Notes under the pieces: generated by a model
What the model was told of the DNA's origin: nothing
The model's input: the letters and a program-made list of their open reading frames with translations, nothing else
Database searches by the model: none
NCBI GenBank assembly: GCA_046329965.1
Contig: JAXLTR010000005.1
Location: 371,385-435,384, forward strand
Reading direction: 5' to 3'
Length of the DNA stretch: 64,000 nt
From: Bacteroidales bacterium
GTDB taxonomy: Bacteria; Bacteroidota; Bacteroidia; Bacteroidales; NBLH01
Shown: piece after piece, positions 4,252 through 59,933 of the stretch
How positions within the stretch are numbered: the stretch's first letter is position 1
Layout of the letters: each line of letters starts with the position of its first letter
Program-made: the position numbers and the translations under genes

Positions 4252-4270
4252 GATTTTAATTTTTACAAAT

Positions 4271-4419
4271 CAACGTCGTTTAGTTAGTAAAACATCTTAT
4301 TTCAATTAATAATTGGTGTATCTATCTTGGTGTATTGGGGATTTTGTGGCCCTATATTATGCCACCAAAACACTAAAACACCAAATTTTCACCAAAAATT
4401 TCTTAACTAAACAGCATTG
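4271..4419 (+). mobile_element. MITE-like element copy A (diverged), 149 bp, flanked by perfect 10-bp direct repeat TTTTACAAAT (4261-4270 and 4420-4429)
   Basis: Termini caacgtcgtttag ... ctaaacagcattg are imperfect 13-bp inverted repeats. The internal hairpin GTGGC-N10-GCCAC and CACCAAA(T) direct repeats are shared with copies B and C. Lies 9 bp upstream of the start codon of the 3676..4251 gene. Confidence 0.65.
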
Positions 4420-4431
4420 TTTTACAAATTC

Positions 4432-6691: not shown

Positions 6692-8257
6692 TCAAGGCCG
6701 GTTATTCTTCAAACACCTGACAGATAAGAATAATTCTTTTAGGATTGCAGTTAACCCGGCTCCCTTATAATTTAAAGTTTCGGTCGGACGGTAAACATTT
6801 AAATACCAAGCGGTATTTTTAACTACAACATTGTCGTCAGATTCAGTCCAAAAACAGGCAAGAGTATTTAATCCAGATATTATGTCTACTATGACATACC
6901 CTGCAAACCGAACTGAAAATTGAGAGAGCCCCCCTTCATTAAGGACTTCAAATAATTCAGCCTGGTTGGATATCCCACCCAACTGGTCTAATAGTAACTG
7001 AAAATCTGATTTCGCAGGTAATTTCCAGCCTGGTGGACAAACCTGTTGGGCTGTTTCCCAGTTATACCAATACCCATATTTCTTTAAATCATCAGGATTT
7101 TTAGATTTAACCCAGCCATTTGTGCTCTGGTAAGCCAGATTTTCAGCCATCCATACCTGACCACCAATTTTTACCACTTTGTATTGCTTTCCATCCCGAG
7201 GGTCGATTAATTTTTCATTAAGAATTGTCCCTTTCCTGCTTTTGGCCATTAAATTTGTGAACCGGTTTTGAATGATGACAAAATTTTTACGAAATGGTTC
7301 AGAACCCCTTATTTCAAGGATATGTTTCCCCGGAGCCAAATTATTTATGGTCAGTGTCCGTTTTTCATCAGTAACATCCCCATGTTTTATACTGTCAATG
7401 AAAACCTCCCCTGTTATTTCAGATTCAAATTTTAAACCCATGGTTGACTTTTCAGTATTATCATAAATGTTCCCCTGCTGGTTTTCGATTTCATTACTGA
7501 TTACAGAAGCTGATTTTTTAGTGAAGTAAAATTCCCCTGTCAGTTTGGTCCATTCCTGTGGACTTTGGTTTCCCCCACTGGCTTTTTGCACATCCACACG
7601 GGTATTTTTAAAAACTGTTTCAATGGGGATAGGTTTTGAAAGGTGTTTCACCAGTTTTTCGGTGAAAAGCCCGTTGCTCCCTTCGCCATCACTGGCGGTG
7701 GCCCCTTCGCTGGTGGCAAAAGCTATAATAGTGCCACTTCCCGGGTTCATGGCCTTAAATCCCCTTGCCCCACTCCTTGCCCACGAACGGAATGGGTTAT
7801 TCCGGCAGGCATCCAGTATAACGATATTTGTATTTTGAGGATATTCTTCAAATTTTGATACCACTTCATTTACCGAAATAGCCTCAAAACTTACCATGTC
7901 CTGGGTATTCATGGTGGCATCAACCGGTATAAGGTAATTTACCCCGTTTACCTGTACACCGTGCCCTGCATAGAAAAACAAAGCCACATTGTAATTGCCA
8001 AGCTTGGACCAGAAATCGGTAATGGCTTGGGCCATTTGGGTCCGATTGGCATTTATCTTTTTAATTACTGTAAATCCAAGGCCCTGAAGGGTGGAAGCCA
8101 TCAGGTTGGCATCGTTCACCGGATTTTTAAGGGGTGCGTTATTATAGGTGTTGTTTCCAATAATTAAAGCAATGCGTTTTTCAATATTTTGGGAAAAACT
8201 ACTGATAATTATAAAAAAAAATACTGATAAACTAACAAATTTTTTCATTCCACTCAA
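6692..8257 (-). CDS. secreted caspase-family (peptidase C14) protein fused to a C-terminal Fibrobacter-succinogenes-major-paralogous (FISUMP) domain
   Basis: 521 aa with signal peptide. Caspase His/Cys dyad context FFYAGHGVQ ... IVILDACRNNPF. C-terminal KIGGQVWMAENLAY ... YNWETA ... CPPGWKLP motif typical of the TIGR02145-type FISUMP domain. Confidence 0.7.
   Translation of the reverse strand: MSGMKKFVSLSVFFFIIISSFSQNIEKRIALIIGNNTYNNAPLKNPVNDANLMASTLQGLGFTVIKKINANRTQMAQAITDFWSKLGNYNVALFFYAGHGVQVNGVNYLIPVDATMNTQDMVSFEAISVNEVVSKFEEYPQNTNIVILDACRNNPFRSWARSGARGFKAMNPGSGTIIAFATSEGATASDGEGSNGLFTEKLVKHLSKPIPIETVFKNTRVDVQKASGGNQSPQEWTKLTGEFYFTKKSASVISNEIENQQGNIYDNTEKSTMGLKFESEITGEVFIDSIKHGDVTDEKRTLTINNLAPGKHILEIRGSEPFRKNFVIIQNRFTNLMAKSRKGTILNEKLIDPRDGKQYKVVKIGGQVWMAENLAYQSTNGWVKSKNPDDLKKYGYWYNWETAQQVCPPGWKLPAKSDFQLLLDQLGGISNQAELFEVLNEGGLSQFSVRFAGYVIVDIISGLNTLACFWTESDDNVVVKNTAWYLNVYRPTETLNYKGAGLTAILKELFLSVRCLKNNRP
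7530..8257. repeat. duplicated ~730-bp segment (caspase-domain coding region), copy 1 of 2
   Basis: Roughly 90% nucleotide identity to 9030..9756 by direct comparison. Identity drops abruptly upstream of 7530/9030. Confidence 0.8.
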
Positions 8258-8259
8258 TT

Positions 8260-9756
8260 TTATTCAATTTTTATACATCGGACTGATAATCCACAATCGT
8301 TCCTGTTTTTTTCAATTGCCATTTTCAATTTCAGATTGGTAATGCCAAAATAAAAAACGAGCTGATTCTGATCACTAGAGGCAGTCCAATATGCCTCTTC
8401 GTCATTAAGATACATATAAGCCCCGGATAAAGGTATTTTGAAACCAGCAAATGAAGGAGAAAAACTCGCTCCTTTTCCATTGACCAAGGAGTTATATCTT
8501 TCTTCAGAAGTATTGCCTAGATAATTAAATAATTTTTGCACATCTTCCTTCGAGGGAAGTTTCCATCCAGGAGGACATACAGTTTTTGCCGATTCCCAGT
8601 CATATAAGTAGCCATAATTTTCAATATTTTTCGAATCATCATCGTATACCCAACATCCTTTTTCAAGTTTTAGTGCCATGTTTTGGGTCATCCATACCTG
8701 GTCCCCTATTTTTGCATAGGAATAGGTTTTGTTATTTCGTCTGTCATATAAAACTGAATTCAGGTTATCAAATGAAAAATTTGTTGTTTTCCCCTCTGCT
8801 ACATAGATTTCTCCAGTTTTTTTATCTTCTCCTTCAAGGACGATCGAATGTTTGCCAACAGGGATATCCTTAAATATATTTCCTTTTGATTTTGAAGCCA
8901 GGAATCCAATTTTATTTCCATCAATGTAGAGAAAACCTCTCGTTTCACTGTCGATTGAAATGTTGCCGTATTTTGTCATTTCATTATCAGTCGTCTCCGT
9001 ATTCACTTGAATTTTTGATTTTACGAAAAAAAATTCCCCTGTCAGCTTGGTCCATTCCTGCGGACTTTGGTTTCCCCCACTGGCTTTTTGCACATCCACA
9101 CGGGTATTTTTAAAAACCGTTTCAATAGGAATTGGTTTTGAAATATGTTTTACAAGCTTTTCGGTAAATAACCCGTTATTCCCTTCGCCATCACTCGCAG
9201 TAGCCCCTTCGCTGGTTGCAAAGGCTATGATTGTCCCGCTTCCCGGGTTCATGGCCTTAAATCCACTGGCCCCGCCTCTTGCCCACGAGCGGAAAGGGTT
9301 ATTACGGCAGGCATCTAATATAACAATATTTGTATTTTGTGGATATTCTTCGAATTTAGATACTACCTCATTCACCGATATAGCCTCAAAGCTTACCATG
9401 TCCTGGGTATTCATGGTAGCATCAACCGGGATCAGGTAATTTACCCCGTTTACCTGTACTCCATGGCCTGCAAAGAAAAACAAAGCCACGTCGTAATTAC
9501 TCAGCTTGGACCAAAAATCGGCAATGGCCTGGGCCATTTGTACCCTGTTGGCATTCACTTTTTTAATCACTGTAAAACCAAGCCCCTGCAAGGTAGTAGC
9601 CATCAGGTTAGCATCATTCACCGGGTTTTTAAGGGGTGCGTTACTATAGCTGTTGTTTCCTATAATCAGGGCAATACGTTTATCATTGGTTTGGGATATC
9701 ATTGTATTTGCAAAATGTATTATTAATAGGGAACAAATAAACTTCTTCATATTCAA
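8260..9756 (-). CDS. secreted caspase-family (peptidase C14) protein with C-terminal FISUMP domain; tandem paralog of 6692..8257
   Basis: 498 aa with signal peptide. Same caspase block (FFFAGHGVQ, IVILDACRNNPF). C-terminal KIGDQVWMTQNMAL ... YDWESA ... CPPGWKLP. Confidence 0.7.
   Translation of the reverse strand: MNMKKFICSLLIIHFANTMISQTNDKRIALIIGNNSYSNAPLKNPVNDANLMATTLQGLGFTVIKKVNANRVQMAQAIADFWSKLSNYDVALFFFAGHGVQVNGVNYLIPVDATMNTQDMVSFEAISVNEVVSKFEEYPQNTNIVILDACRNNPFRSWARGGASGFKAMNPGSGTIIAFATSEGATASDGEGNNGLFTEKLVKHISKPIPIETVFKNTRVDVQKASGGNQSPQEWTKLTGEFFFVKSKIQVNTETTDNEMTKYGNISIDSETRGFLYIDGNKIGFLASKSKGNIFKDIPVGKHSIVLEGEDKKTGEIYVAEGKTTNFSFDNLNSVLYDRRNNKTYSYAKIGDQVWMTQNMALKLEKGCWVYDDDSKNIENYGYLYDWESAKTVCPPGWKLPSKEDVQKLFNYLGNTSEERYNSLVNGKGASFSPSFAGFKIPLSGAYMYLNDEEAYWTASSDQNQLVFYFGITNLKLKMAIEKNRNDCGLSVRCIKIE
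9030..9756. repeat. duplicated ~730-bp segment (caspase-domain coding region), copy 2 of 2
   Basis: Roughly 90% nucleotide identity to 7530..8257. Confidence 0.8.
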
Positions 9757-10435
9757 AAGAATTTTAAAACCAATTAAAAATAAAAATTTTCCAAAACTAA
9801 AATTGTTATAAAACTTAAAAGTGAATTTTCCATTATGGAAATTAATAAACCAATTAACTTCAAATCATAATCAAAGAGTGAATCTATATATTTATTCTCA
9901 TTATTTTTCTAATGCCAAAATTTAGAATCAATTTAGAAAAAATGTCAGTCTATTAAACCCTTCTTAATATCCAATGTGTACTCCATCTCATAATTATTAA
10001 AGAATCTAATTCACAGAAAGAGGAATCCACATTTTAAGAAATATTGGATTTTACCCGTAAACGCTTTTAGCGTTGTAACTAAAGTTACTATTATTTCTGG
10101 TTTTGTATTGGTATCTTTCGATAAGCTTAAGTTAAATATGGTTGTTTGCCAGGTAAAAAAATTAATTGCCCAACTATTATCAAAAGAAAGAATACCAGCT
10201 TATCCTGAAGATCTTTCGGTTTTGTAATTCGTAAATTTGTTATTTGGAATGGATTTAAATAAACCCGGGTTTGTCTTTAGAAAAATTCTAATGATAATTT
10301 TGGGATAAACGCCGGTAATAGCTCAAAATTCGGTTATAATTTCCATAAACCTGGTAAAAGCCGTTGTTTTTTAGTAAAATGTCCGTATGGCAGGTCAGCT
10401 CGTCAGTCCAGTGCAGCTGGCCAGGGTTACATTCC

Positions 10436-11203
10436 CTACTTTGAAATATCCAGAAAATTATCCTGTATTCTTTCCTTCCATTTTTTGTATTCGCGTTGTA
10501 AAAGCAGTCTGTTAATTTCTCTTCCGTGCGATGGAAGAAATATATTACATTTTGTTTCAAGCAGTTTTCCCCAACTTTCAACCATTAAGGCAACATCATT
10601 CGCAAATGGAGGAAAAACAGAACCGCTAAAAACGCCAAACATGGCATCGCCGACAAGGGCTATTTCATCATCAACAATTAAACTCATCGAACCCGTAGTG
10701 TGGCCTGGGGTGTGGATTAAACAGGCTTTAATTCCAAATTCTTTTAGATCATAAATTTCATCCAGGAGTAAATCCGGAATGCAAGGTTCGTAATTAAATT
10801 TTGGCGAAAGTTTTTTACCTACAAATTTCATCAATGGTTTGGTAAAAAATGTCGTCCCGTTTGGTAAAATATTCTCTCCTGCAGTCAGATAACCGGCTTC
10901 GTTTTTATGGATAATTACAGGAATTTTATATTTCTCTTTTACTTTATTTGCATTGGCTGCATGGTCAAAATGAGCATGGGTTAAAATCAGGCAGTCGATG
11001 TTTTTTAACGAAAGTTTGACAATTTGCTTTTGTAACTTTGCCCAAAGTCGCGAAACTGAGGCATCAACCATTAAATTATTTATTCCGTTTGACACTATAA
11101 AAACATTGCATCTCCCTGATAAAACACGGATTATTTCATAACCATTTTTAGTTTTCCATTTTTTCAATTTAAAACAGGTTTTTATTTTAGGATTCAATGT
11201 CAT
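10436..11203 (-). CDS. MBL-fold metallo-hydrolase
   Basis: 255 aa with HxHxDH motif (LTHAHFDHAAN). The predicted ATG (11201-11203) lies inside the terminal repeat of MITE copy B, so the true start is uncertain. Confidence 0.7.
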   Translation of the reverse strand: MTLNPKIKTCFKLKKWKTKNGYEIIRVLSGRCNVFIVSNGINNLMVDASVSRLWAKLQKQIVKLSLKNIDCLILTHAHFDHAANANKVKEKYKIPVIIHKNEAGYLTAGENILPNGTTFFTKPLMKFVGKKLSPKFNYEPCIPDLLLDEIYDLKEFGIKACLIHTPGHTTGSMSLIVDDEIALVGDAMFGVFSGSVFPPFANDVALMVESWGKLLETKCNIFLPSHGREINRLLLQREYKKWKERIQDNFLDISK

Positions 11204-11348
11204 TTAGATAATGATTTTTTTCGTGGAAGTTGGTGTCTTTGTGTTTTAGTGGCGAAAACACTTTTGCCACCAAATCACCAAATCACAAAATCTCACCAAA
11301 TCTTCAATAAATTGATATTTTATATTTGTCATTAACTAAACAACATTG
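11195..11348 (+). mobile_element. MITE-like element copy B, 154 bp, 13-bp TIRs (caatgtcatttag / ctaaacaacattg), 10-bp flanking direct repeat TTTTAGGATT / TTTTAAGATT (9 of 10)
   Basis: About 93% identical to copy C over the full length. Contains hairpin GTGGC-gaaaacactttt-GCCAC and CACCAAAT direct repeats. Overlaps the first three codons of the MBL hydrolase ORF. Confidence 0.8.
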
Positions 11349-11405
11349 TTTTAAGATTTCAAAATAATTGTTTACAGTTGGTTTTATATAGTTCAACCCT
11401 AGAAA

Positions 11406-12596
11406 CTAACGGCCAAATTCTTTTTCAATCAAATTCACAGTTAGTTCCACGCCGTTTACATTTTTAAGTTTTTGTGCCATTTCAACAGCATTTTTCTTAT
11501 AGGTTTCATTGTTTATACATTCCATAATGGCATTAGAAATGGCCCGGGTACTGATTTTTTTAAAATTGCAGGTTTTGGGGCCAAGGTTTAGTTTCACTAT
11601 CTGGTCACGGTTCATAAACTGGTCGCCCATAAAAGGAAAGGCAGCATGCGGAACACCGGCCCTTGCCACTGCCGACATGGTTCCGGTTCCACCATGGTAC
11701 ACTACTGCCACCAATCGCGGAAAGAGCAGCTCAAAAGGCATGTCGTCAACATATAAAATATTTTCATTATTATTTTCGGGCAAATTGGCCCATCCTTTCG
11801 ATACAATTAAGCGTTGTTGGGTTGTTTGTTGCACTTCTATAAAAATCTGGCCGTATTTTTCGGGACCTGTAATGGGGTTGCTTCCAAATCCAATATAAAC
11901 AGGTGGTTTTCCGGAATTAATGAAATTTTCAACCCCATCAGGCAGCTGGTTTTTCGATGGTAAAATCATGTAGGCCGTCTGTGTAAATGAAAAAGCAACT
12001 TCTTTACGGGCTTCAACAAGTTCCCTGTCACAGGCCATTATAACATTATCGCCCAGCCAATGGTGCCAGGCATCCTTAATGGGAGGAAGCTGGTATTTTG
12101 CCCTGTTTTTATTGATAAATCCCCTTATAAACAGGTTTATCATCTTTCGTCCAAAAGCAAACATCATCCTGTTTTTTAACGGGTCTTCAGGAGTGGTTCC
12201 CAGCAGAATAGGATAAAAAGCCACAAGCCGGTATGGAACTTTTAAAATATCTGCAGCTGTTTGTACCCCCATCACTATGCCTGTTGCCAATACCAGGTCA
12301 ACCGGTTTTATCAGTTCCGGTAAAATATTAATTTGATCCCCTATCAATTTCTTCCCCTGTTTTGGTGAAATTTTTACAGCCACCCCACCTTTCTGCTTTT
12401 GAGGGTTTTCGTTTATCTGTTTTTTAATTTCGGGGCCGAATTTAATAAACCTGCAATTGTTGGTTACTACAAGTTGTTCATTTTCAGGAGGGGCGCAAAT
12501 TACTACATCGTGTCCATTTCCGGTAAGGCCTTTAGCAAGGGCCACCATAGGCTGAACATCGCCGCGTGTGCCGAGAATTACAATGGCTATTTTCAT
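11406..12596 (-). CDS. glycosyltransferase family 1 (MGT/UDP-glucuronosyl-transferase-like)
   Basis: 396 aa. N-terminal MKIAIVILGTRGDVQPMVALAKGL (GT1 N-domain). C-terminal HGGTGT ... donor-binding block. Confidence 0.65.
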   Translation of the reverse strand: MKIAIVILGTRGDVQPMVALAKGLTGNGHDVVICAPPENEQLVVTNNCRFIKFGPEIKKQINENPQKQKGGVAVKISPKQGKKLIGDQINILPELIKPVDLVLATGIVMGVQTAADILKVPYRLVAFYPILLGTTPEDPLKNRMMFAFGRKMINLFIRGFINKNRAKYQLPPIKDAWHHWLGDNVIMACDRELVEARKEVAFSFTQTAYMILPSKNQLPDGVENFINSGKPPVYIGFGSNPITGPEKYGQIFIEVQQTTQQRLIVSKGWANLPENNNENILYVDDMPFELLFPRLVAVVYHGGTGTMSAVARAGVPHAAFPFMGDQFMNRDQIVKLNLGPKTCNFKKISTRAISNAIMECINNETYKKNAVEMAQKLKNVNGVELTVNLIEKEFGR

Positions 12597-59583: not shown

Positions 59584-59635
59584 AGCGTTACGCTGGAATT
59601 GTAATATTTTTCGGTGAAAATAGAAAATTAAATGG

Positions 59636-59789
59636 TAATGTCGTTTAGATAAGGATTTTTTTCGTGCAAGTTGGTGTCTTTGTGTTTTAGTGGCAGTAAC
59701 ACTTTTGCCACCAAATCACCAAATCACAAAATCTCACCAAATCTTCTATAAATTGATATTTTATATTTGTCATTAACTAAACGACATTT
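59636..59789 (+). mobile_element. MITE-like element copy C, 154 bp, 13-bp TIRs (taatgtcgtttag / ctaaacgacattt; inner 12 bp perfect), perfect 10-bp target-site duplication AATTAAATGG (59626-59635 and 59790-59799)
   Basis: Coordinates derived directly from the sequence. About 93% identical to copy B. Internal hairpin GTGGC-agtaacactttt-GCCAC. CACCAAAT direct repeats. TATATTTG motif near the right end. Confidence 0.85.
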
Positions 59790-59933
59790 AATTAAATGGC
59801 ATTTTGTATTTTCAAAAAGTGAAATCTCAGGATTATTTAAAAGAAGGCTACTCTTGTATGAAAAAAACATTATATCTTTATTTGAATCAGGATTTAAATC
59901 ATTTTTTAAAATTTTATTACCTATTGGGTTTAC

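Follow-up and report, generated by a model that had tools for sequence, protein, structure and literature searches.

An MBL-fold hydrolase gene of a Bacteroidales bacterium is very likely still translated from the TTG codon at 11167-11165, as it was before a MITE, here called copy B, was inserted upstream of it; the MITE is intergenic, and the open reading frame has become longer by accident. The ATG that copy B seems to donate to the gene is very probably a by-product of a longest-ORF reading, in which the gene occupies 10436..11203 on the minus strand and encodes 255 amino acids. The features discussed below, all of them in the 64,000-nucleotide stretch of DNA that was analysed (the window), are collected in Table 1.

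The hydrolase gives a full-length match to Pfam PF00753 (78.7 bits against a cutoff of 22.7, residues 31-226), and its HxHxDH motif is present as THAHFDH. In an NCBIfam scan all 22 matches, beta-lactamase models included, scored far below their cutoffs, and the best of them, subclass B3, reached 43.1 bits where class B assignment would take 240. Given these scores, we consider the protein a generic MBL-fold hydrolase and not a recognisable beta-lactamase.

Table 1. Positions of the hydrolase gene, the MITE copies and associated features in the window
Feature	Position	Strand	Details
MBL-fold hydrolase gene, from the native TTG	10436..11167	-	243 aa + stop; PF00753
In-frame 12-codon extension MTLNPKIKTCFK	11168..11203	-	3 codons TIR, 3.3 codons TSD, remainder native leader
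Proximal target copy of copy B, TTTTAGGATT; gene strand AATCCTAAAA	11185..11194		Fits family consensus AWTTnnAAWT
MITE copy B	11195-11348		154 bp, non-coding; TIRs and 10-bp TSD; 144/154 identical to copy C
Gene-proximal (left) TIR of copy B, CAATGTCATTTAGATAA	11195..11211	+	CAT at 11201-11203 = gene-strand ATG
Gene-distal (right) TIR of copy B, reverse complement CAATGTTGTTTAGTTAA	11332..11348	-	
Distal target copy of copy B, TTTTAAGATT	11349..11358		9/10 identical to proximal copy
Candidate Bacteroidetes -7 box TTATTTTG	11360..11367	-	5/6 specified positions of TAnnTTTG
GT1-type UDP-glycosyltransferase gene, upstream neighbour	11406..12596	-	Stop TAG 11408-11406
MITE copy A	4271..4419		149 bp, much diverged subfamily; perfect TSD TTTTACAAAT at 4261-4270 and 4420-4429
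MITE copy C	59636..59789		154 bp; perfect TSD AATTAAATGG at 59626-59635 and 59790-59799

A MITE and its terminal ATG upstream of the hydrolase gene

Copy B is a genuine MITE, that is, a non-autonomous transposon. It shares with copies A and C the possession of TIRs (13-17 nt at both ends in all three), a target duplication of fixed length, a small and dispersed form and the lack of a transposase ORF. The 13-mer CAATGTCATTTAG, which at 11195-11207 on the plus strand spans the ATG and the next two codons, has its inverted repeat at 11336-11348 and forms further inverted pairs at 4271/4407 and 59636/59777; it has seven matches against 1.8 expected, a number that no shuffle reached. Copy B sits between the stop of the glycosyltransferase gene and the start of the hydrolase gene, in a spacer that was 74 nt long before the insertion and now measures 238 nt. 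Its interior (11226-11303) is an imperfect palindrome of units of about 8 nt (CACCAAAT CACCAAAT CACAAAAT) that face GGTG-type units.

The first-pass annotation had placed an ATG for the hydrolase inside the gene-proximal TIR, directly behind an in-frame TAA, had attributed it to a CG to CA change and had read the target duplication as codons for NPK(I). These statements about the sequence all hold. The gene-strand sequence of the proximal TIR is CTAA-ATG-ACA-TTG, with TAA at 11206-11204 and ATG at 11203-11201, and the 5' end as a whole is ...ATCATTATC TAA ATG ACA TTG AAT CCT AAA ATA AAA ACC TGT TTT AAA TTG AAA AAA TGG AAA ACT AAA... Position 8 of the TIR is G in five of the six TIRs of the window and A only in the left TIR of copy B, and because the sister copy C has G at both ends, this A is a private change. 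The description of the ATG as the only one available is literally true for the first 44 codons, but the TTG at 11167 is itself a canonical start.

The reconstructed empty site reads, on the gene strand, ...TTT TGA AAT CYT AAA ATA AAA ACC TGT TTT AAA TTG AAA AAA TGG, which in the frame of the gene translates as ...KQLF*NLKIKTCFK-L-KKWKTK. As had been proposed, an in-frame TGA immediately precedes the target in the reconstruction, which lacks an ATG; nor does it contain a GTG or another TTG ahead of 11167-11165, the only canonical start after the TGA. A CpG transition in an ageing TIR would have created the ATG, which would happen to be in frame with the hydrolase, and the end of the TIR, the target duplication and 17 nt of native leader, with no stop among them, would then have lengthened the ORF by 12 codons. 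For an insertion this far from the gene, we estimate the chance of such a stop-free, in-frame link between the TIR ATG and the gene at about 1 in 6 (one third for the frame, times about 0.5 for nine AT-rich codons). The 12-codon extension has no counterpart in the conserved N-terminus of the orthologs.

The distal TIR of copy B carries a private change of its own, C>T at position 7, in the same CpG as the proximal change. Together with the single mismatch between the target copies, the CpG changes of the two TIRs make up three private changes (11201, 11342 and 11190/11354), all G>A on the plus strand and hence C>T on the sense strand of the flanking genes. With n=3, they are compatible with cytosine deamination on the non-template strand.

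Translation start of the hydrolase

The NCBI protein of the same genome (P0001, 'MAG: Bacteroidales bacterium'), found in a search of 5.8 billion proteins, is 243 aa long, 100% identical and starts MKKWKTKNGYEII, corresponding to TTG 11167, with the N-terminus MKKWKTK. P0001 aside, the best 120 homologs are 52-66% identical to the hydrolase. In 89 of these 120 the protein begins exactly 16 residues from a conserved SGRxNV anchor, at the position of the TTG, and about 10 more that the regular expression missed match the same position by eye, for a total of about 100. The closest homolog from another genome is only about 65% identical, and the 90%-identity cluster of P0001 consists of one sequence from one contig. 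Homologs with longer gene calls mostly have an internal Met at the TTG-equivalent site (alignment A3).

The codon at this site varies among orthologs. The two closest that were checked have ATG there, as seen in their DNA (L001 and L002), and for two JGI orthologs (P0048 and P0067) the annotated start is at this residue and is a codon other than ATG. In a further ortholog, P0093 (L131), the conserved codon is TTA and the start lies six codons upstream, so start-codon turnover and short extensions do occur in the hydrolase family.

In Bacteroidetes, A at -3, -12 and -13 promotes initiation (Baez et al. 2019, PMC6847099), and TTG 11167 has an A at each of these positions. Because the target duplication regenerates the native sequence beside the gene, positions -27 to -1 are unchanged by the insertion. 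The native start has been kept, at the conserved first residue and behind an intact -27 to -1 region, and the ATG of the element is not required. The orthologs, the NCBI annotation and the logic of the empty site agree on TTG 11167, as in the second of two alternatives offered by the first-pass annotation, in which the real start was the TTG of the KKWKTK region. That annotation had also held that a native start at a conserved position downstream would make the TIR ATG irrelevant, and the alignment of ortholog N-termini puts it there. Since the native start is TTG 11167, the MITE lies in the 74-nt spacer and not in the coding region.

In the other alternative, the gene lost its original 5' end to the insertion and was saved by a chance mutation in the TIR that supplied a new start codon. 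The TIR ATG is indeed the sole in-frame ATG and was made by a point mutation in the TIR, but about 100 of the best 120 homologs begin at a conserved residue whose position in this gene is 27 nt downstream of where the element went in, the in-frame TGA of the reconstructed empty site stands immediately upstream of the target, and the MBL domain is complete. From the position of the insertion, upstream of the first residue and downstream of this TGA, it follows that no coding sequence was lost, and we regard a rescue of this kind as almost certainly not what happened.

The TIR ATG could also be used alone or together with the TTG, yielding a 255-aa hydrolase whose first 12 residues come from the TIR, the target duplication and the former leader. 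The ATG is in frame, with no stop in between and only 36 nt upstream of the TTG; AUG inherently initiates translation better than UUG; short N-terminal extensions are seen in some orthologs; and this genome has TTG where the closest orthologs have ATG. The upstream context of the TIR AUG has A at -6, -12 and -13. Against these points, there is no A at -3, pairing of the AUG is predicted with p about 0.99 for a transcript that covers the whole element, translation must have begun at the TTG before the insertion, and the NCBI annotation picked the TTG. We consider use of the TIR ATG unlikely. The 255-aa isoform would probably be functional, as the family tolerates short N-terminal extensions (P0093).

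Leader, RNA folding and promoter

Translation from the TTG is also consistent with the predicted structure of the leader. The candidate -7 box TTATTTTG ends 2 nt upstream of the distal target copy, and its distance from the TTG was 28 nt before the insertion and is 192 nt now. Its sequence suggests a near-consensus Bacteroidetes -7 box; for comparison, an exact -7 box, TAGTTTTG, is found at 9799-9792, 41 nt upstream of the ATG (9750) of the next gene. Transcription may start from the candidate -7 box or proceed by read-through from the glycosyltransferase gene, and either way the whole element would be part of the leader. A scan for terminators found no terminator-like site, and Rfam searches had no match at E<=1 in 10900-11700 and none at gathering score across the whole window.

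The RNA from 11365 to 11160 (206 nt) folds with an MFE of -46.1 kcal/mol (z = -3.9), and the TIRs pair into a long hairpin. By partition function, the paired probability is 0.99-1.0 for the AUG and 0.05-0.34 for the UUG, and the pairing of the UUG is essentially equal in the reconstructed empty-site version. The hairpin argument is valid only with transcription starting upstream of the distal TIR. If transcribed, the element would add a stable hairpin to the leader, with the AUG buried in the TIR stem and the UUG single-stranded, and the insertion would push upstream signals, possibly including the -7 box, 164 nt further from the gene. We infer that the element is transcribed, that the hairpin forms and that initiation is kept at the UUG.

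The proposal that the element had remodelled both the start and the promoter of the gene survives in part: the start codon and positions -27 to -1 are untouched, and the spacing of leader and promoter has changed by 164 nt. Judged from the sequence, remodelling of the leader or promoter by copy B is plausible.

Insertion sequences are a source of promoters for Bacteroides genes such as cfiA. An outward promoter or other regulatory signal of the MITE could likewise control the hydrolase, in which case transcripts would begin inside the element and the hairpin would not form. Each of the three copies in the window has a gene start 19-52 nt downstream, and copy B contains one weak -7-like match, AAGATTTG, at 11304-11297. 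There is, on the other hand, no exact TAnnTTTG inside copy B; a sigma-70-type scan, a model that is wrong for Bacteroidota, gave 5 hits against 3.0 +/- 1.9 expected and so did not exceed shuffles; and MITE interiors are not conserved across the family. Among the matches listed, moreover, a larger number of the family's ends point towards gene 3' ends than towards 5' ends (94 vs 69), and they do so at shorter distances (median 73 vs 117 nt). Control of the hydrolase by such a signal is, on balance, quite improbable.

A further proposal, that the TIR AUG is used at least when the hairpin of the leader opens or transcripts begin within the element, and that the A-variant TIR is a portable stop-then-start module for downstream genes, is in our view more doubtful still. 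Initiation at the AUG in any form, with a transposon-encoded N-terminal peptide as its product, has a small chance of being correct. If it were, the hydrolase would carry a 12-residue N-terminal peptide derived from a transposon end, a target duplication and a former leader.

A superfamily of MITEs with related ends

The other two copies in the window also lie close to genes. Copy A, which shares its ends and the style of its interior with copies B and C, is 19 nt upstream of the ATG (4251) of a DUF4287/DUF5655 gene and 12 nt past the stop (4432) of a PD40 beta-propeller gene. The spacer between these two same-strand neighbours, now 4252-4431, was originally about 21 nt, and copy A is evidently tolerated inside an apparent operon. 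Copy C is in a divergent intergenic region, 52 nt from the start of a VanZ-like gene.

The TIR pair CAATGTCGTTTAGTTAA...TTAACTAAACGACATTG defines a large MITE superfamily. A metagenome scan for TIR cores 110-140 nt apart identified at least 120 loci (L011-L130), with elements of 134-164 bp and a TIR consensus of CAATGTCGTTTAGTTAAG. Members share only the terminal 20-26 nt, and their interiors are lineage-specific. Statistics on TIRs and target duplications were taken from the 109 elements with both flanks among the matches listed. TIR position 8 in these is G at both ends in 81, A at both ends in 25 and mixed in 3, a co-variation that suggests two lineages, perhaps with different transposases. 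A perfect 10-bp target duplication flanks 45 of the 81 G-variant elements listed, and in 57 of the 81 the two target copies differ at no more than one position. The target itself follows the palindromic consensus AWTTnnAAWT, with an A+T content of 76% (matches listed).

Among the AT-rich metagenome loci listed, none of 107 elements is inside a long ORF, and 12 of 69 5'-facing ends are within 50 nt of the first ATG. As ends near gene starts recur both in the metagenome loci and in the copies of the window, landing just upstream of a start codon is normal for this family, probably because its AT-rich palindromic target is similar to Bacteroidota leader sequence.

Outward ORFs of at least 60 codons occur in the ATG frame at 12 of 228 ends, compared with 3 and 5 in the other two frames, which are biased as controls (matches listed); we do not find this enrichment of long ORFs outward from the TIR convincing. 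The best candidate for a long outward ATG ORF, in L084, was rejected as a spurious ORF in GC-rich DNA.

The A-variant TIR, which reads CTAA-ATG-ACATTG, is present at both ends in 25 of the 109 relatives listed. Several A-variant elements are in GC-rich contigs (e.g. L084 5753-5914) or have inverted, not direct, flanks (L011, L017, L022, L033), and may for this reason be parts of longer palindromic elements. Flanking ORFs of at least 120 aa read into the element at six ends in the metagenome loci and terminate at the TAA of GTTAA, 17 nt into the TIR. Because the inward TIR has stops in two of three frames (TAG, TAA), insertions in the extreme 3' end of a gene would be capped at once.

A parallel to copy B is found in L113 (7768-7911), where a 364-aa ORF (7910-9004) formally starts at the terminal TTG of the TIR (MVEKYRYMKIEILGTGCKRC...). 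Judged by eye only, its real start is likely the Met seven codons further in (MKIEILGTGC...).

A scan of a genome collection with the interior 21-mer yielded mostly unrelated inverted CACCAAAT octamer arrays in other phyla and one plausible relative, L005. Exact copies of this 21-mer, GCCACCAAATCACCAAATCAC, are present in Saprospiraceae, Roseivirgaceae and Lewinella MAGs (L003, L007, L008, L010), where they belong to inverted arrays of tandem CACCAAAT or CACCAAGT octamers that differ from the MITE.

Relation to known mobile elements

The ends of the superfamily are of the IS4 type. The IS4 subgroup is characterised by -AATR--------WTW ends and by direct repeats of 10-13 bp (De Palmenaer et al. 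2008, PMC2266710 Table 1), and the present elements have CAATG at positions 1-5, TTA or ATA at 14-16 and a 10-bp target duplication. In these ends, in a duplication within 10-13 bp and in being small, non-coding and multi-copy, they resemble IS4-family-derived MITEs; they differ in their host, a Bacteroidales MAG, and in a palindromic interior of CACCAAAT-type units of about 8 nt. The relationship between MIC231 and IS231 in the Bacillus cereus group is an analogous case of an IS4-family MITE. We looked for an autonomous partner in the 120 loci listed and found no TIR pair 0.6-4 kb apart that encloses a transposase, the enclosed genes being ordinary. Two solitary matches to the exact 17-mer TIR were found in viral contigs, with no transposase. 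The TIR sequence was not found in any paper of the collection searched, and this MITE superfamily with IS4-type ends appears to be undescribed in print.

Correia elements of Neisseria are MITEs of about 100-160 bp that are intergenic near gene starts, are co-transcribed, form TIR hairpins and can alter the expression of neighbouring genes. They duplicate a TA target, have demonstrated promoters and undergo RNase III processing. Copy B is like them in size and in its intergenic site near a gene start, but its TIRs are different, its target duplication is 10 bp instead of TA, and its hairpin is a predicted one.

In Bacteroides fragilis, full-length insertion sequences with documented outward promoters are found upstream of cfiA, a true class B carbapenemase gene, which they activate, as they do other genes. 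As in that system, an MBL-fold gene of a Bacteroidales bacterium has a mobile element directly upstream; copy B differs in being a MITE with no recognisable promoter, and the hydrolase in reaching 43 bits against 240 for subclass B3. BrickBuilt (PMC4596501) is a MITE of Porphyromonas gingivalis with a 23-nt tandem minisatellite. It resembles the present MITE as a Bacteroidales element with an interior of short repeated units, whereas the latter has inverted arrays of units of about 8 nt and other ends.

Implications for annotation and other observations in the window

A MITE in a 5' leader, and the ambiguity in start-codon annotation that comes with it, is a known and ordinary phenomenon. For annotation, the case illustrates that longest-ORF or ATG-preferring gene calling stretches the hydrolase 12 codons into a transposon end, which ortholog-aware calling does not do. 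Such errors are easily made in Bacteroidota because there is no Shine-Dalgarno signal to arbitrate. In biological terms, copy B is another MITE in an AT-rich leader or intercistronic spacer that has done no damage to a gene. The only mildly new point is the apparently undescribed MITE superfamily with IS4-type ends, which is common in environmental and gut metagenomes.

Two further regions of the window were noted. The interval of about 680 nt between the stop of the hydrolase gene and the next gene on the same strand (9757-10435) wholly contains one ORF of at least 40 aa and has no Rfam match; a plus-strand ORF of 42 aa (10387-10515) extends past this gap. A 300-nt direct repeat occupies 7523-7822 and 9025-9324, 1.5 kb apart, at 88% identity. 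Its second copy is inside a 498-aa ORF (8260-9756), and the two copies could belong to tandem paralogues.
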